A DNA stretch of 64,000 bases. Source: a virus (lineage: Duplodnaviria > Heunggongvirae > Uroviricota > Caudoviricetes). The stretch is from the IMG/VR virus record IMGVR_UViG_3300028805_000076, positions 8,165 through 72,164 of that record. One strand, 5' to 3'. Below the pieces are notes generated by a model. That model had not been told where the DNA came from. It saw only the letters and a list, made by a program, of their open reading frames with translations, and made no database searches. Position 1 is the stretch's first letter; the number at the start of each line of letters is the position of its first letter. A program made the position numbers and the translations under genes. Shown one piece after another: positions 2,941 to 58,678 of this stretch.

Positions 2941-3834
2941 ATGGTATTTACAATTATTAAAGCTATTGCAATCGTATTTGGATTAGTGTGGTTTTATTTA
3001 TGTTTTGGCGGTAATGATAACAATCATGTAAATTGTGATGGTATCAAATTTTACAAATTACAAGATGTTAAAATGCAAAGTCCAATTGCACAAAAGATTT
3101 TCGATTTTTACAAATCAATGTTGTTGGATAAAAAACTGATTTTAGCAGAGGTGTTTTGTGATATTGATTTGCGTAGAGAATGGAATAAAATACGTAATGA
3201 TGAAAATTTGGTAAGTGGTCAAGATGCCAATATTATTGATGCATTAGATACATCTTTTTGTCATTATTTACAAGAAATAGCACCATCAAACATTATTTTA
3301 AATCCAGAAGAAAAATGTTATTTTAATTCTCAATTATGTGTAGTTAATACTGTACAAAAAATTGGAAGGAATGTAACGTATGGTGGAATTAGATTTAATG
3401 AGAATGGTGTAAGAAGTGGTAATTGTACTATATATTCAAATGACGTTAGCGGTTTTAAAGTATTTGATTTTGGTACTGTTGTAGTTACCAATCAACGAAT
3501 TATCTTTAAAGGGGAAAACAAAAACAAAGTAATCCCAATTGGTACAATTCTTAGCGTTGACAATTATGAAGATAATGGGGTAATCATTTCAATGAGTAAT
3601 CGAGAAAATCCAATTATCATTCGATTTAGAGCTGATAAGTGTTTTTATCATCGTCCACAAAGCGAGTACTATTGTTTCTATAATGACTTAAATTGGTTTA
3701 ATAAAGCAATCGATAAAGCATTGTATAAACGTTTAATGCCAAAGGAAGTCCAAGATATTAGAAAAGAAGCGGACGAGTTAAATTTTTTGGTAGCTAAAAA
3801 AACAATGGTTGCCGAAGGATTAGAAACAGAATAG
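2941..3834 (+). CDS. membrane-anchored hypothetical protein
   Basis: N-terminal hydrophobic helix MVFTIIKAIAIVFGLVWFYLCFG; 297 aa. Confidence 0.5.
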   Translation: MVFTIIKAIAIVFGLVWFYLCFGGNDNNHVNCDGIKFYKLQDVKMQSPIAQKIFDFYKSMLLDKKLILAEVFCDIDLRREWNKIRNDENLVSGQDANIIDALDTSFCHYLQEIAPSNIILNPEEKCYFNSQLCVVNTVQKIGRNVTYGGIRFNENGVRSGNCTIYSNDVSGFKVFDFGTVVVTNQRIIFKGENKNKVIPIGTILSVDNYEDNGVIISMSNRENPIIIRFRADKCFYHRPQSEYYCFYNDLNWFNKAIDKALYKRLMPKEVQDIRKEADELNFLVAKKTMVAEGLETE

Positions 3835-14220: not shown

Positions 14221-14463
14221 TTAACATATTTCATAAAATTTCTTAATACTGTCCATTATACTGAATAACTCAAAATTTGACAGTGCTGTCAGCTTATAGA
14301 TATAACCAAGAGGGAATTGAATCTTTCCAATTCCATCCTCAATAAATACATTAATATCAGTTGTCCCGTAATTAACATAAACGTTTGGAATTGAAAGACG
14401 ATATTGTTCATCTTCTTTACCATATCTTCGCATCAGCTTATGTATTCCCAATAATAGATTCAT
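14221..14463 (-). CDS. hypothetical protein
   Basis: 80-aa ORF. Confidence 0.45.
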   Translation of the reverse strand: MNLLLGIHKLMRRYGKEDEQYRLSIPNVYVNYGTTDINVFIEDGIGKIQFPLGYIYKLTALSNFELFSIMDSIKKFYEIC

Positions 14464-14556: not shown

Positions 14557-14595
14557 AACCCACGAAAAAATAGGTAAAGTTATGAAGAAAGTATG

Positions 14596-14685
14596 TTGGT
14601 AGAGATGGATTTGAACCACCGAAGCCTCATAAGAGGCGACTGTGCCACTAAACACAGCCCCATTTGACCGCTTTGGTATCTACCG
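14596..14685 (-). tRNA. class-II-like tRNA (long variable arm), atypical 8-nt anticodon loop, anticodon unresolved
   Basis: acceptor cGGTAGA/TCTACCa, D arm CCA-AAGCGGTCAAA-TGG, T arm GGTGG-TTCAAAT-CCATC, variable hairpin GCCTC-TTAT-GAGGC; anticodon stem CTGTG/CACAG encloses TTTAGTGG. Confidence 0.45.
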
Positions 14686-14687
14686 AA

Positions 14688-14779
14688 TGGTTGATAGAGA
14701 GGGATTCGAACCCTCGAAGCCTCCGAAGAGGCGGTTGAGCTACTAACACAACCCCATTTGACCGCTTTGGTATCTATCG
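14688..14779 (-). tRNA. class-II-like tRNA, paralog of the previous, encoded CCA, anticodon unresolved
   Basis: same 5' half; T arm GAGGG-TTCGAAT-CCCTC; 3' end TCTATCA-A-CCA; loop region TTAGTAG. Confidence 0.45.
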
Positions 14780-17552: not shown

Positions 17553-17588
17553 AAAAAAAAGGACACCCGACAGTAGTCGGATGCCCTC
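17553..17588 (-). terminator. intrinsic terminator downstream of the tRNA-Leu 3' exon
   Basis: ggacacccgac-agta-gtcggatgccc with an A8 run on plus. Confidence 0.55.
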
Positions 17589-17621
17589 CAAACAATTATT
17601 ACTAACCTTAAAAACACGTTG

Positions 17622-17670
17622 TAGCTCAAGTGGGATTCGAACCCACACGGTCGAATGACCAAGGGATTTT
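17622..17670 (-). tRNA. tRNA-Leu(UAA) 3' exon (positions 35-84)
   Basis: AAAATCCCT-TGGTCATTCGACCG-TGTGGGTTCGAATCCCAC-TTGAGCTA; near-identical to the 3' half of E. coli tRNA-Leu(UAA). Confidence 0.7.
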
Positions 17671-18451
17671 CTTACTACTCTTGCTTTGATACAAGCCAAC
17701 TTCGTGAGTTGTTGTAGTCTGGACTATTTCTTCACCATGCCAATTTGGTTTAGGTGTTTCGTATATAGTCTCTACGCCATTTAGGATAAATATCCATTTA
17801 GTAAGCCATCGCCAAAGTTTATGTCACCATAAACAAGGTTTCTGTTTGTTAGCGAAATTCTACTTCCCAATATTTTTTATTTATTGTTTTTTCCTTTCGG
17901 AAAGGAAGCACTCTTAATGTTTAGACCTCGATAATTATCTGTTTGTGCGTGGCAATTAGGGCATAAAATTTCAAGATTCTCTAATCTATCATCGGTTGTT
18001 ATTCCATTTTTATGGTGTAACTCCAATGGTATTTTTTTACCCATCCATTTTGTAAGCCCACAACATTCACATTTTTCTTCTTTAATTTGTTCTCTAAAAA
18101 GCCTATTTTTTAATTTATAAGAACTATAATGAGAATTCTCAACTAATAATTCATCGGTTTTTATTTGGCGTTTAGGATTAAATTTTAAACCTATATTCCA
18201 ACCTTTACCCGTAAAATGTGAAATATCAATTTCATACTTTTCAATAATTTTATGAAGAGTATTATAATTCCCACCACAAGGTTTTAAATTAAAAAACCTA
18301 AGCATTTCAGCAATACTATGTGAACATTTTGCTGCTTCTACATATTCTTCTTTCGTTCTTTCTTTTCTCATATCATATTACTTTAATAATAAATAGTACG
18401 ATATGAGAAAAAGTAATCACGAAATTATGACTATATTTTGGCCTTTACCAA
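17671..18451 (-). other. group-I-like intron in the tRNA-Leu anticodon loop (U34/A35), carrying an HNH ORF
   Basis: classic tRNA-Leu(UAA) intron position; exon ends in U, intron ends in G; R-like AGACUAUAUAC and S-like GAAAUAGUCC elements after the ORF. Confidence 0.6.
17877..18371 (-). CDS. HNH endonuclease (intron-encoded)
   Basis: CECCG...ELHHKNGITTDDRLENLEILCPNCH. Confidence 0.65.
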   Translation of the reverse strand: MRKERTKEEYVEAAKCSHSIAEMLRFFNLKPCGGNYNTLHKIIEKYEIDISHFTGKGWNIGLKFNPKRQIKTDELLVENSHYSSYKLKNRLFREQIKEEKCECCGLTKWMGKKIPLELHHKNGITTDDRLENLEILCPNCHAQTDNYRGLNIKSASFPKGKNNK

Positions 18452-18486
18452 AAGTCCCTAGTGTCTACCAATTCCACCACTGAGCC
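18452..18486 (-). tRNA. tRNA-Leu(UAA) 5' exon (positions 1-34)
   Basis: GGCTCAG-TG-GTGGAATTGGTAGACAC-T-AGGGA-CTT matches tRNA-Leu D-arm TGGTGGAATCGGTAGACAC and anticodon stem AGGGA/TCCCT. Confidence 0.7.
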
Positions 18487-49709: not shown

Positions 49710-51230
49710 TTAAAAATCGTTAATAGTGCTTTCCATCATTTCTATATCCACCTCACCTTTATCTATACGCTTGCTTTCCAACAAGAAGAAAGCCTCTGTT
49801 TTAAGCTTGAACGCTTCTTTTATTTCATCGCCAACGATTCTCAATACAAAGCCTTCACGAGGTACTTTATTATGACAGAGAGGTTCATTCTTTTCCATAA
49901 AGAATCTTTTTTCCTTACCAAGAAGTTCAAGTACATTTTCATTCCAATGATTTTTGGTATCAACTTCTGGATAAAAATCAGCCAACTTGCCACGGAAAAG
50001 CACGTCAAGTACGAAAAGCCTGTCAGCAATTTCTGGGCGTTCATTCATTAGATTCTTTGTCCAATTTATCACTTCATCAACTTCCCATTCTTTTTTAGAG
50101 CCATCTTCGTTAGTTGTTGTTATTCTATATGGCATAAATTTGTTATGACCAACTTCACATCCATAATCGTAATTTCCAGTAGCAAACATTTTTTGCAAGC
50201 CAGTTTCATAACCAAAAATTTCGCCATAAACGGTCATACCTTCTTGTATAGCCCCTTTCAATATCTCGTTATATTCAGCCCATACGTCTGTTTTATAATA
50301 ACATTCTGTGCTATTTTCGTTGATATATTGGTTTCTAATTTGGTGTCTAGATGAATATATGGTATCATATACATATTCTATCTTTTGGAATTTGATAGGC
50401 AATGAATGGCAAACCTTATTCACTATGTTGGTTAGCCAACCAAATGGTGTACTATATTGCTTTGGTCTTTTTGTTAGAACATTTGCAAATATGGCAGAAG
50501 TGCCATGTATTTTAGTAGTAATAATTACTTCAGTATCTGGTTTAATCAAATTAAAATTCTTCTTAAGTGGCTGTGTGTCATAATGAAAGAAGAATTGACC
50601 TGGAATCATTCGGTCATATCGTTTGATTTTATTTTGGCTCCACGTATATTCTCGTACAATTCTTTTTTTCGGTGGTATATATGGAACATATGCTTTGATA
50701 AACAATTCACCATTGACAGTATCAAAGTCGTAACCGATATAATCCTTCAAATTGATATTAACTATTTCTGGGCAAAACTTTTCCATTGTTTCTATACTAA
50801 ACAAGAAACCGCTAGAAGCAACACCTCTAAGTCTAATCATTTTTACTCTTCGGTGTTTGGTAAAAAAACCAGTGTTTTCTTTAATCAACGATTCCAATCT
50901 TGAAACTTCTTCCAAATCTTGATTTGTTTTTGCCAATTGAAGCTGTGTAAGGAGTTTACCTACTTGAACAGCATTTGCGTTCTTGTCGAATTCGCTTTGT
51001 TCAAACAGATTATTTACTGACAAGAACCGTTCATTCAATTGTGTTTCATTTTCAGCATAGAACATCAAATCACCTTGCTTTACCAAATCTCGTCTGACTA
51101 CAATTGTTTGCCCGTTTACTTTTGTTGATGCAAGAAAATCAGAATTTGGTATAGGTTCAATCTCGCCAACCTCAATGATTGACGCACAGTATTCGTGGTT
51201 TATATGTTCTGATTGTTCTAGTATTTTCAT
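49710..51230 (-). CDS. RNA ligase, Rnl2-like nucleotidyltransferase with a ~200-aa N-terminal extension
   Basis: motif I TKIHGTS (T4 Rnl2 is KIHGTN), motif IV EGFVLR, motif V FKLK. Confidence 0.55.
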   Translation of the reverse strand: MKILEQSEHINHEYCASIIEVGEIEPIPNSDFLASTKVNGQTIVVRRDLVKQGDLMFYAENETQLNERFLSVNNLFEQSEFDKNANAVQVGKLLTQLQLAKTNQDLEEVSRLESLIKENTGFFTKHRRVKMIRLRGVASSGFLFSIETMEKFCPEIVNINLKDYIGYDFDTVNGELFIKAYVPYIPPKKRIVREYTWSQNKIKRYDRMIPGQFFFHYDTQPLKKNFNLIKPDTEVIITTKIHGTSAIFANVLTKRPKQYSTPFGWLTNIVNKVCHSLPIKFQKIEYVYDTIYSSRHQIRNQYINENSTECYYKTDVWAEYNEILKGAIQEGMTVYGEIFGYETGLQKMFATGNYDYGCEVGHNKFMPYRITTTNEDGSKKEWEVDEVINWTKNLMNERPEIADRLFVLDVLFRGKLADFYPEVDTKNHWNENVLELLGKEKRFFMEKNEPLCHNKVPREGFVLRIVGDEIKEAFKLKTEAFFLLESKRIDKGEVDIEMMESTINDF

Positions 51231-56510: not shown

Positions 56511-57671
56511 ATGAAAAAGGAAGAATTAATTGAAATAAAGAAAGATAAAACTGGTACTGGTTTGCTTATAGAGCACGATGGATATATCAAACCAAACAGT
56601 CAACTAATCAAGGAAAGTATGGATGGTGAATGGCATTGTCCATTTCCATTCGTAGTTGATGCCGTATTTCAAAAGGCTGACGTAAAAAATGCGAATGGTC
56701 GTATTTATCCAAGAAAAATACTTGAAAGGGAAATTGAAAACTATCAGCAAAAAATACGTGAACATAGAGCACTAGGGGAATGCTATACACCAGATGTATT
56801 AGTCTTATGTGTAGATGGTTGGAAATGTATTTCTAGTATCACAGAAAATGATTCTGTATTAACTTTAAACACCTCTACCAACGAAATTGAAATCCAAAAA
56901 GTATCCAAAAAAATTGAATATGATTATGATGGTGAAATGATTAGGTTAGAAAGCAGTAACATATCTGATTTAGTTACACCAAATCATGGGTATCCAATAT
57001 ATAATGATAAAGATATTTTTGAAAATTTTTACACTGCTGAAGACATATTTAATGGTAATATAAATAATATTGAAAAATGTTATATTCCTAAATTTGTACC
57101 ATCTTTTGCTAATTGTGTTTCATTAAACAAAAATAAATTAATAGTTACAAAAGAAAATTATTGTGGGAAAGTAATGTGTATAGAAGTACCAAATCATACT
57201 TTTTACGTTATGTCAAATGGTAAATGCCATTGGAGTAAAAACTGCAATCACCCTAGTGATTCCACTATAGACCTTGGAAGAATCAGCCATAATATCATTG
57301 AATTGCATTGGGAAGGAAATACAGTAGTAGGTAAGCTTGAATTGAATATCAGTGAAGGTTTTAGAAGAAGCGGTATTTGCTCAACTCTTGGTGATACTGT
57401 TGCTAATCTTCTATTGAATGGCTATAAGATTGGTGTATCTTCTAGAGCAGTAGGAAGCGTAGAACAGAAACTTGGTGTACTAGTGGTTGGAGATGACCTA
57501 GAACTTATTTGTTGGGATGTGGTTAGCGACCCTAGTACAAATAATGCTTGGATAAGTATGAATGGTAAAGAAGAAATGCAAACTTGGATTGAAAATAAAG
57601 AAAATGTTGGAAATTCAAAAAATATTATTTCTGAAAAAATTACCAAAATAAAAAATATTTTAAATGGTTAG
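56511..57671 (+). CDS. protein with a mini-intein; extein resembles a T4 gp21-like prohead protease (low confidence)
   Basis: Hint blocks: CYTPDVLVL..DGWKCISSI (A), LVTPNHGYPIY (B), VMCIEVPNHTFYVMSNG (F), SKN|C (G). Confidence 0.5.
   Translation: MKKEELIEIKKDKTGTGLLIEHDGYIKPNSQLIKESMDGEWHCPFPFVVDAVFQKADVKNANGRIYPRKILEREIENYQQKIREHRALGECYTPDVLVLCVDGWKCISSITENDSVLTLNTSTNEIEIQKVSKKIEYDYDGEMIRLESSNISDLVTPNHGYPIYNDKDIFENFYTAEDIFNGNINNIEKCYIPKFVPSFANCVSLNKNKLIVTKENYCGKVMCIEVPNHTFYVMSNGKCHWSKNCNHPSDSTIDLGRISHNIIELHWEGNTVVGKLELNISEGFRRSGICSTLGDTVANLLLNGYKIGVSSRAVGSVEQKLGVLVVGDDLELICWDVVSDPSTNNAWISMNGKEEMQTWIENKENVGNSKNIISEKITKIKNILNG
56781..57242 (+). other. mini-intein (Hint domain, 154 aa, no endonuclease domain)
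   Basis: Cys1 at aa 91, terminal Asn at aa 244, +1 Cys. Confidence 0.5.
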
Positions 57672-57691
57672 TTCGAAGATTATATCCCAAA

Positions 57692-58678
57692 ATGATATTT
57701 ATTAATATAAATATTATTTTTTGTATGGGTAAAAAATTAACAACAGAAACGTTTAAAATACAATTAGAAAAAGAACATCCAAATCTAGAATTGTTATCTG
57801 AATATAATGGAAATAAAAATTATATAACTGTACGATGTAAAATACATAACTACGTTTTTAATACAAAACCAAATTGGCTTCATAAAGGGCAAGGATGCCA
57901 AAAATGTTATGATGAAAAAAGAGGTGAAACAACAAGGAAAAAAATAGAAGATTTTATAAAAGAAGCGAATTTAATTCATAAAAATAAATATGATTATTCT
58001 AACGTTGTTTATAAAAACAATAAAGCCAAAATCTGTATAATTTGCCCAATTCATGGTGAATTTTGGCAAACTCCAAATAAACATTTAAGTGGTCAAGGAT
58101 GTCCAAAATGTTCTGGTAAAAATAAAACAACAGAAGAAATTATTGATATTTTCAACAAAATTCACAAAAATTATTATAACTATAATAAAGTTGAATATAA
58201 AAATAATAAAGCTAAAATATGCATAATTTGTCCTATTCATGGTGAATTTTGGCAAACACCAGAAAAACATATTCAAGGAGAGGGTTGTCCATTATGTAAA
58301 TCTAGTAAATTAGAAATGACTGTTAGAAATTTTTTATTAGATAATAATATTGATTTCATAAGGCAAGCCAAATTTAATTGGCTAGGCAAACAATCATTAG
58401 ATTTTTATTTGCCAATATATAATATTGCAATCGAATGCCAAGGAGAACAACATTTTAAAGAATTTAGTGGGAAATTTAAACTTAAAAATACATTAGATAA
58501 AAGAATACAATTAGATATAACAAAAAATGATTTATGTAACAAAAATGGGATAAAAATATTTTATTTCTTTAATAGAAAATGGGAACATAAATCTTTAGAT
58601 AAAATTTTCAATAACATATATAATTCCAATGTGATATTTGAAAATGAAATTAGTAAATTAAAAGATATTTTAAGTTAA
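57692..58678 (+). CDS. zinc-finger repeat protein with a C-terminal DUF559/Vsr-like PD-(D/E)xK nuclease domain
   Basis: two ~60-aa repeats ...CPIHGEFWQTP.KH..G.GCP.C; C-terminal DFYLPIYNIAIECQGEQH. Confidence 0.45.
   Translation: MIFININIIFCMGKKLTTETFKIQLEKEHPNLELLSEYNGNKNYITVRCKIHNYVFNTKPNWLHKGQGCQKCYDEKRGETTRKKIEDFIKEANLIHKNKYDYSNVVYKNNKAKICIICPIHGEFWQTPNKHLSGQGCPKCSGKNKTTEEIIDIFNKIHKNYYNYNKVEYKNNKAKICIICPIHGEFWQTPEKHIQGEGCPLCKSSKLEMTVRNFLLDNNIDFIRQAKFNWLGKQSLDFYLPIYNIAIECQGEQHFKEFSGKFKLKNTLDKRIQLDITKNDLCNKNGIKIFYFFNRKWEHKSLDKIFNNIYNSNVIFENEISKLKDILS

Follow-up and report, generated by a model that had tools for sequence, protein, structure and literature searches.

A phage tRNA-Leu(UAA) gene split by a probable self-splicing group I intron with an HNH endonuclease gene in its P1 loop

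The split tRNA-Leu(UAA) gene and its insert

The analyzed stretch of phage DNA, referred to as the window, comprises 64,000 nucleotides (nt) and corresponds to positions 8,165-72,164 of the IMG/VR record IMGVR_UViG_3300028805_000076. On its minus strand, a transfer RNA (tRNA) gene, tRNA-Leu(UAA), was found to be interrupted by an insert of 781 nt, which carries an open reading frame (ORF) for a putative HNH homing endonuclease. Unless stated otherwise, all window features described here lie on this strand. The 5′ exon (18452-18486) reads GGCTCAGTGGTGGAATTGGTAGACACTAGGGACTT and provides the 5′ strand of the acceptor stem, the D arm, the 5′ strand of the anticodon stem and C32-U33-U34. The 3′ exon (17622-17670) reads AAAATCCCTTGGTCATTCGACCGTGTGGGTTCGAATCCCACTTGAGCTA and provides A35-A36, the rest of the anticodon arm, a long variable arm, the T arm and the 3′ strand of the acceptor stem. 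It ends at the discriminator A, and CCA is not encoded.

The joined exons form an 84-nt class II tRNA, which was called tRNA-Leu(UAA) by ARAGORN; its acceptor stem has 7 bp, its variable arm is long and its 7-nt anticodon loop reads CUUAAAA. In the acceptor stem and the anticodon stem (AGGGA/UCCCU in the spliced tRNA), the two halves complement each other exactly, giving a full-scoring tRNA-Leu. For the unspliced DNA, the intron mode of ARAGORN returned the same tRNA-Leu with a 781-nt intron at position 35/36, which is U34|A35 in standard numbering. The insert (17671-18451) begins after an exon U and finishes at G17671, directly before exon AAAAUCCC, as was verified base by base; this omega-G is nearly invariant across the alignments of the intron family described below. 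An earlier interpretation of the same DNA, made without database searches (the sequence-only reading), had joined the same two segments and had placed the interruption in the loop CUU|AAAA, between an exon U and an insert ending in G. The split gene is thereby confirmed, and an identical split, down to the nucleotide, recurs at more than 100 loci.

The split gene is unseen by default ARAGORN and by the Rfam tRNA model, and no uninterrupted tRNA-Leu(UAA) was detected within the window. Compared with the 5′ exons of its closest counterparts among the tRNA-Leu(UAA) genes of Bacteroidales, the 5′ exon shows 83-91% identity. A hairpin resembling an intrinsic terminator (17558-17589; 14 pairs, 7 of them G-C, with a U run) is located 32 nt past the tRNA and is kept in a sister contig described below.

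The HNH endonuclease gene, already noticed at 17877-18371 in the sequence-only reading, is an intact ORF of 164 amino acids (aa). Its product matched PHROG 10822 ('HNH endonuclease') with E = 1.4e-43, and the translation carries CxxC...ELHHKNG...N...CPNCH, an HNH motif with flanking Cys pairs. No solved structure was significantly matched by sequence. Its homologues with 55-63% aa identity are encoded by ORFs located within Bacteroidales tRNA-Leu introns or just downstream of them, and the protein is, judged by these similarities, an HNH homing endonuclease. In several Bacteroidales loci (L056, L080, L091, L098, L105, L112, L123, L133 and L138), a homologue was found free-standing just downstream of a tRNA-Leu(UAA) gene with an ORF-less intron.

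Group I core and intron family

The 5′ strand of helix P1 (18448-18455) consists of the exon sequence ACUU and the intron sequence UUGG, with the 5′ splice site between 18452 and 18451. ACUU|UUGG pairs with UUAAGAGU at 17917-17910 (A-U, C-G, U-A, U-1·G, U-A, U-A, G·U, G·U), resulting in a U18452·G17913 wobble at the splice site. The internal guide region UUAAGAGUGC (17908-17917), in which G17913 is opposite U-1, is located inside the last codons of the HNH ORF. The guide GAGUGC occurs once in the window (17913-17908), immediately ahead of P2 (CUUCC...GGAAG), and was identified at the homologous place in 49 of 56 distinct tRNA-Leu introns of the family with a locatable guide. The ORF-less tRNA-Leu relatives show the order exon ...GACUU, short loop, (UU)GAGUGC, P2 hairpin, GUAGAA and P3. 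In family members that split tRNA(CUA), the exon CUCU is paired with the guide GGAG, which amounts to covariation within P1. Two other guides in the first 25 nt of the intron, AAGGCC and AUAGUC, were rejected, as U-1 would stand opposite A or U and the ORF-less relatives show GAGUGC before P2.

Since the guide lies within the 3′ end of the ORF, the HNH ORF sits in a P1 loop of 533 nt. The last 37 nt of the ORF overlap the guide, P2 and P2.1, and the stop codon is found in an A-rich internal loop of P2. P2 (17863-17908) is formed by CUUCC (17908-17904) and GGAAG (17867-17863), for which the relatives have CAUCC/GGAUG or similar at the same place; the P2.1 hairpin UUUCC-GAAA-GGAAA (17903-17890), verified base by base, is enclosed by it. 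The ORF-bearing relatives in Bacteroidales (approximately 680-756 nt) show the same overlap of ORF and guide over 25-40 nt, their HNH homologues sharing the position in the P1 loop, and 42 relatives are short (approximately 210-300 nt). The placement of an endonuclease gene in the P1 loop with an overlap of the guide is an unusual arrangement that is conserved across the family. The 251-nt introns of L053 and L082 agree with the ORF-bearing L135 (684 nt) at either end of the P1 loop, namely TAACGGGTTCTC ... ctaaacaa|GAGTGC, and look like deletion derivatives without the endonuclease gene.

The 5′ part of the P1 loop was predicted to fold into a hairpin (18362-18413), the 3′ arm of which holds the start codon AUG of the ORF (18371-18369). 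The fold of 18451-18340 has a free energy of -31.6 kcal/mol (z = -6.56), and none of 200 shuffled sequences was equally stable. The AUG is placed in a stem in some bacterial relatives, too.

A base-by-base check showed that the window sequence accommodates all helices from P1 to P9 with standard pairs. RNAalifold was run on 15 aligned cores, with the P3 pseudoknot added by hand, and the consensus contained P4, P5, P5a, P6, P6a, P7, P8 and a three-way P9 domain. In this alignment 97.7% of the cells were paired, versus 34-47% with slid partners; both-sided (compensatory) changes were found in 24 of 48 pairs, and the observed values were reached by none of 500 shuffles. For 78 distinct bacterial sequences, which were aligned with the family model R1 and are hence biased towards the structure, 97.0% of the cells were paired and 34 of 42 pairs showed compensatory changes. 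The slid controls of both alignments together gave 32-47% paired cells.

The 5′ strand of P3 (UUUCG, 17853-17857) pairs with CGAAA (17761-17757) as a pseudoknot with P7 and is supported by covariation: in the 78 sequences, all 5 pairs were compensatory and 98.4% of the cells were paired. The P3 sequence GUAGAAUUUCG comes after P2 in the window. The strand was placed after the ORF because the homologous strand follows P2 in all relatives, and a candidate located before the ORF (UUUCGUG, approximately 18424) was rejected for this reason.

The P4-P6 domain (17776-17844) was derived from the RNAalifold consensus and from pair counts. It comprises P4 (CA/UG, 17844-17843 with 17808-17807), P5 (CC/GG), P5a with a GUGA loop (17834-17817), P6 (GCU/GGC, 17806-17804 with 17778-17776) and P6a (17795-17784). 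The second P4 pair covaries as A-U, G-C or C-G with a mutual information of 0.95. P4 (17843-17844 with 17807-17808; region of columns 25-32 with 88-94 in alignment A3) is flanked by apparent tandem G·A pairs, and next to it, at the base of P5, a position alternates between A·C and G·U. A longer P4 was rejected, since a mutual-information scan of the 78 sequences gave no covarying pairs beyond the two Watson-Crick pairs and the A·C/G·U position.

P7 (17721-17772) is formed by GACUAU (17770-17765) and AUAGUC (17727-17722), plus G17772-C17721 across the bulged A17771. These strands are the R-like and S-like elements noted after the ORF in the sequence-only reading. The G-binding site is present, with G17772-C17721, the bulged A17771 and then G17770-C17722. 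P7 encloses the 3′ strand of P3 and also P8 (CACC 17756-17753 with GGUG 17736-17733), which covaries in the family. P7 itself never varies in the alignments and is therefore neither supported nor contradicted by covariation; this invariance is partly due to the selection of the loci with an exact 18-mer covering the 3′ strand of P7. The 3′ domain (17671-17718) consists of P9.0 (ACUAC/GUAGU, 17718-17714 with 17678-17674), which closes the hairpins P9a (17711-17697) and P9b (17695-17680), followed by AAG ending in the omega-G; it rests on covariation and the base-by-base check.

Thus, a complete model of the group I fold from P1 to P9, on which the sequence-only reading depended, was obtained and finds support in compensatory changes; the structural interpretation of that reading is supported. 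The site in a tRNA anticodon loop, the length of approximately 250 nt without the ORF and the absence of P5abc would fit class IC3, and P4 is atypically short. The intron may be described as IC3-like, a group I intron of the bacterial tRNA type.

Relatives were retrieved with one exact 18-mer, AAATAGTCCAGACTACAA, which covers P7 and the following joining region. It was found in 48 viral-contig loci, where the intron splits tRNA genes within tRNA arrays, and in 88 loci of species-representative genomes, almost all of them from Bacteroidales, Prevotellaceae, Cryptobacteroides, Paludibacteraceae or Rikenellaceae. Nearly all of the 88 loci are chromosomal tRNA-Leu(UAA) genes, as the 3′ exon is AAAATCC.... 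Elsewhere, more than 100 introns that interrupt tRNAs at this position have 81-88% identity to the window core. Among the deposited phages, blastn matched only the part after the ORF, in the crAss-like phage cr115_1 and in Lak megaphages; no close relative was present among the deposited phage genomes, the matches to Lak phages being only 80 bp in length.

The covariance model R2 was built solely from 18 Bacteroidales chromosomal tRNA-Leu introns, with the window left out. It scored the window with 220.3 bits (E ~1e-59) over model positions 1-206 of 206; this score and the core identities to the other introns exclude chance. On the strength of the models R1 and R2, which recover more than 100 intron-split tRNA genes, the window intron is assigned to the Bacteroidales tRNA-Leu(UAA) intron family. 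The rarity claimed for such an intron in a Bacteroidota phage was not borne out, since the same family is found in the 88 Bacteroidales chromosomal and 48 viral loci and an HNH-bearing Bacteroidota case has been published (PMC13011429). A weak local match of R2 at 14236-14296 (18.8 bits, E = 6e-4 by a rough calibration), located between a 623-aa ORF and tRNA-like genes, is probably noise.

Apparent recent mobility, proposed mechanism and alternatives

The intron is 99.7-99.9% identical across three phage genomes with diverged exons and flanks. The sister contig IMGVR_UViG_3300028888_000044 (387.5 kb, IMG/VR viral; loci L140, L321 and L323) differs from the window at L140 in 1 of 781 intron positions and in none of the ORF, compared to 7 of 84 exon positions, some of them compensatory and located in the D and T stems, and 4.1-6.9% in the flanks. 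At this flank rate, one difference or fewer in 781 nt has a binomial probability of 3e-18. For the metagenome contig Ga0326513_10002480 (L322), 2 of 781 intron positions differ and the ORF is identical at the nucleotide level. The tRNA-Leu(UAA) exons of this contig differ from those of the window at 16 of 84 positions, its flanks cannot be aligned with the window and the neighbouring 624-aa protein is 58% identical.

In both comparisons the identity begins 8 nt before the 5′ splice site. It stops 12 nt past the 3′ splice site for L322, and the first difference in exon 2 of L140 is found 24 nt downstream; the near-identity block shared with L140 and L322 departs from the intron limits by at most 8 nt (5′ side) and 12 nt (3′ side). 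Such a pattern is what homing with short co-conversion tracts is expected to leave behind, and it independently confirms the limits of the intron, which looks recently mobile and apparently still spreading among phage tRNA genes. The spliced products of L140 and L322 are also of the tRNA-Leu(UAA) type. The exon differences among the three genomes are compensatory and all three products fold as tRNA-Leu, which indicates selection on the mature tRNA.

Taken together, the phage tRNA-Leu(UAA) is very probably split at U34|A35 by a 781-nt self-splicing group I intron, the P1 loop of which houses a gene for an HNH homing endonuclease (estimated probability roughly 0.88). Transcription would run through the tRNA gene to the terminator at 17589-17558. 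As sequence and covariation show, the exon ACUU and the first four intron bases pair with UUAAGAGU 533 nt downstream to form P1, and P2-P9 form the catalytic core. Following the established group I mechanism, an external guanosine would attack after U18452, and G17671 would then occupy the G-binding site in P7. Ligation of the exons, held by the anticodon stem AGGGA/UCCCU, would give a normal 84-nt tRNA, and the spliced junction would read ...GGGACUU|AAAAUCCC..., i.e. ...AGGGACUU joined to AAAAUCCCUU....

Since the start codon is buried in a stable hairpin and the tail of the ORF overlaps the guide and P2, translation and splicing of one transcript should exclude each other, which would hold the expression of the endonuclease low. 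The HNH enzyme may cut or nick intron-less tRNA-Leu(UAA) DNA near the sequence encoding the anticodon loop, with GGTAGACACGAGGGACTTAAAATCCCTTGG as the candidate target. Repair from an intron-bearing copy would then spread the intron with very short co-conversion tracts, as is indirectly suggested by the near-identical intron in three diverged phage genomes. The bare target AGGGACTTAAAATCCCTTGG was found in at least 120 viral contigs. Host and phage tRNAs have this target sequence in common, which makes an exchange of the intron between host and phage plausible.

Several findings weigh against this interpretation. The Pfam models HNH_3 (20.0 bits, cut-off 24.8) and HNH (15.9 bits, cut-off 21.4) scored the 164-aa protein below their cut-offs. 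The Rfam model Intron_gpI (RF00028), which the sequence-only reading had proposed as a check, gave no match in the window at any threshold tried, whether at the gathering score, over 1.3 kb with E ≤ 10, or over 331 nt free of the ORF. At the gathering score, it did not match the ORF-less relatives L013 and L029 either. With laxer filters, two ORF-less relatives were matched: L028 reached 49.1 bits (E = 6e-10; gathering score 50) and the Bacteroidales tRNA-Leu intron L068 reached 31 bits (E = 1.6e-4), both below the gathering score; the two alignments put AGAGACUAUA and AAAUAGUCC onto the P7 strands. Intron_gpI contains 12 seed sequences, none of which is bacterial (Williams 2020, bioRxiv 10.1101/2020.01.27.920355), and the miss of the window appears to be due to this lack of bacterial seeds.

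Within the fold, this branch of the family shows a P4 of just two Watson-Crick pairs, P10 is weak with three possible pairs, and the 533-nt P1 loop, which keeps the guide far from the splice site, could slow folding. No syntenic intron-less allele, and hence no presence/absence polymorphism at this locus, was found among at least 120 uninterrupted tRNA-Leu(UAA) matches in viral contigs. A search with the upstream 182-aa protein for an intron-less locus returned only the sister contig, and an exact 40-mer across the spliced junction had no match in metagenome contigs. The assignment to a Bacteroidota host is indirect and rests on the 81-85% identity of the core to Bacteroidales chromosomal copies and on the D-arm and anticodon-arm sequence around the insertion, which is almost the same as in Prevotellaceae tRNA-Leu. 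Finally, both splicing and cleavage by the endonuclease are inferred.

One alternative regards the intron as a splicing-dead relic and the tRNA-Leu as a pseudogene, with the structure conserved only through recent arrival. The unusually short P4, the missing Rfam match, and a long P1 loop and ORF-guide overlap that could hinder folding would fit a relic, but all core helices, the U·G wobble, the omega-G and the G-binding pair are intact, and the short P4 is retained with compensatory changes in more than 70 Bacteroidales chromosomal tRNA-Leu genes. Given also that the window holds no detected uninterrupted tRNA-Leu(UAA) and that the compensatory exon differences leave three foldable tRNA-Leu products, a relic is considered very improbable. 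Hardly better placed is ordinary homologous recombination or gene conversion between co-infecting phages, by which the near-identity of the intron would arise with the HNH gene as a passenger or in another role. The identical exon stretches next to the intron (8 nt and 12 nt) could act as short recombination arms, and an HNH homologue stands free downstream of an ORF-less intron in several Bacteroidales genomes. Such short arms are poor substrates without a targeted break, though, and the identity block ends 8-12 nt from the splice sites in two independent backgrounds, one with unalignable flanks. The ORF is moreover intact and 100% nucleotide-identical in all three genomes, and intron and HNH ORF recur in the same arrangement across the family, so this explanation is improbable, too. 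That the two segments are independent degenerate tRNA remnants flanking an HNH gene by chance was suggested by the failure of default tRNA finders; the complementarity of the halves, the recurrence of the split in more than 100 loci and the covariation-supported group I core between the halves already refute it, and it has practically no chance of being correct.

Beyond homing between phages, the family may move both ways between Bacteroidales chromosomal tRNA-Leu(UAA) genes and phage tRNAs, with the intron or its endonuclease acting in conflict or timing and such introns being widespread in gut phages. This extension is tentative and, as a whole, rather doubtful. Two-way movement is possible because the target sequence is identical in host and phage; this identity and the retargeting of the guide to other phage tRNAs would also permit a role in conflict or timing beyond that of a selfish passenger. 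The guide has also been re-fitted to further tRNAs of phages, among them the amber-suppressor tRNA(CUA) in the recoded phages Lak-B1 and crAss-like cr115_1. In a conflict, the intron or its endonuclease could cut intron-less tRNA genes of the host or of competing phages; in a timing role, the output of suppressor or supplementary tRNAs could be made dependent on splicing. If true, phage tRNA genes with group I introns would be widespread among gut phages, a feature undescribed as far as the literature search reached.

Comparison with known introns and further observations

HNH endonuclease genes in Bacteroidota tRNA-Leu(UAA) introns were described in a 2026 survey, in which only 12 of 333 bacterial tRNA introns were endonuclease-bearing (PMC13011429). 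These introns resemble the window intron in the tRNA, the insertion site and the endonuclease family, and the Bacteroidales loci compared here likewise have their ORF in the P1 loop, where it overlaps the guide. The Bacteroidales copies are chromosomal genes, whereas the window copy splits a tRNA encoded by a phage; its P2 is longer and includes an additional hairpin and, unlike the chromosomal copies, it comes with direct population evidence of recent spread between phage genomes.

Introns that split tRNA-Leu(UAA) at CUU|AAAA represent the classic IC3 case of bacteria and plastids, and surveys class Leu.3Ug as IC3 (among others Williams 2020, bioRxiv 10.1101/2020.01.27.920355). By description, the classic (cyanobacterial) introns share with the window the CUU|AAAA point, the U-1·G pair, the omega-G, a compact, IC3-like core that lacks P5abc, and an anticodon stem by which the exons are kept together. 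They are approximately 250 nt in length without an ORF and are regarded as ancient and vertically inherited; the window intron differs in its endonuclease gene, its apparent recent mobility and its reduced P4. In the IC3 intron of the Azoarcus pre-tRNA-Ile, the P7 strands and adjoining joining regions, which we take to be GUAGAGACUA and AUAGUCCAG, are presumably nearly the same as in the window. The Azoarcus G-binding pair presumably follows a bulged A, and its counterpart in the window would be G17770-C17722. The Azoarcus pair is named G129-C176 in one report (PMC13168695). The Azoarcus intron differs from the window intron in the tRNA and the insertion position, in having no ORF and in its normal P4 of 6 bp.

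Phage group I introns with homing endonucleases are known from protein-coding genes, such as T4 td, nrdB and sunY and the DNA polymerase genes of SPO1 and Bastille (HNH, I-HmuI-type). Group I introns in protein-coding genes have also been described for intron-rich crAss-like and 'Jug' gut phages (PMC7886860, PMC12880540). Like the window intron, these combine a self-splicing intron with a homing endonuclease, and near-identical introns in diverged genomes mark homing; the target in the window, in contrast, is a tRNA gene, the sequence of which is shared with the host. Jug phages (360-402 kb), which infect Bacteroides or Phocaeicola, are reported to carry 18.5 group I introns per genome on average; HNH is their commonest endonuclease type, and the main text makes no mention of tRNAs (PMC12880540).

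In a 2014 review, all phage introns then known were located in protein-coding genes despite the many phage tRNA genes (PMC3984707). Unclassified, 'enigmatic' tRNA introns were described for Lak phages by Devoto et al. 2019, who called introns in phage tRNAs previously unreported (PMC6784885), and intronic sequences in tRNAs were noted in a 2026 survey of jumbo phages (PMC13037316). The Lak introns lie, as the window intron presumably does, in tRNA genes of Bacteroidota-infecting phages, and Lak-B genomes hold members of the window intron family. The published Lak introns were found by eukaryote-mode tRNAscan and left unclassified; in the accessible text, only a tRNA-Tyr intron is listed for Lak-B, and the Lak-B group I introns seen here within tRNA(CUA) and tRNA-Leu(UAA) are not mentioned (PMC6784885). 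No paper identifying group I introns in phage tRNA genes was found in our literature search, the coverage of which is incomplete and no proof of absence.

The novelty of the window intron is modest, because it belongs to a well-populated family of a known kind, and the single case is unsurprising to a specialist. Added here are the guide inside the ORF, the family-wide architecture of the P1 loop, the comparative evidence of current spread among phages and the finding that the family splits many phage tRNA genes. The window intron is a clean natural example of a group I intron apparently spreading now, the ends of which are fixed to approximately 10 bases by genome comparison. Standard tRNA and Rfam scans miss such genes, which leads to tRNA counts that are too low for large gut phages and for many Bacteroidales genomes. 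The wider pattern, with 48 viral contigs retrieved by a single 18-mer and including suppressor tRNAs of recoded phages, may merit a dedicated survey.

Different arrangements were observed among the viral members of the family. In Lak-B1 (L002, MK250020.1, approximately 1930-2260), the intron splits a tRNA with the spliced anticodon CUA (amber suppressor), and the same CUA-anticodon tRNA is split in the crAss-like phage cr115_1 (L001, NC_055898.1, approximately 2405-2740), in L008 and in similar loci. In Lak-B2 (L003, MK250021.1, 1366-2130), a tRNA-Leu(UAA) apparently carries two group I introns, one in the D loop (R1 match 1539-1687, 31.9 bits) and one at U34|A35 (1748-2069, 113 bits). Paired R1 matches approximately 10 nt apart, with a tRNA-like segment inside the P9 loop of the intron, were found in three viral contigs of 98-162 kb (L014, L018 and L041). 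They may represent a twin or nested arrangement and recall a remark in the literature on introns of phage tRNAs, namely that these 'could encode another tRNA'. On the 98-kb viral contig of L007, a family member is accompanied by a different group I intron (3532-3757), which scored above the Rfam threshold (65.5 bits) and apparently lies within a coding sequence.

Elsewhere in the window, RNA ligase, head protease and further HNH genes provide a phage context. A 506-aa phage-type RNA ligase is encoded at 49710-51230 on the minus strand (PHROG 968, E = 9e-44). Such RNA ligases are used by phages to repair cleaved tRNAs. On the plus strand (56511-58678), a 386-aa ORF with partial matches to a head maturation protease and to thymidylate-synthase-like sequences is directly followed by a 328-aa HNH/homing endonuclease, and this pair may be another insertion of the intron or intein type. 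Two tandem tRNA-like genes of 91-92 nt with long variable arms and odd anticodon loops (UUAGUAG; a loop of 8 nt) were called by ARAGORN only, at 14595-14779 on the minus strand, and are below the Rfam tRNA threshold.

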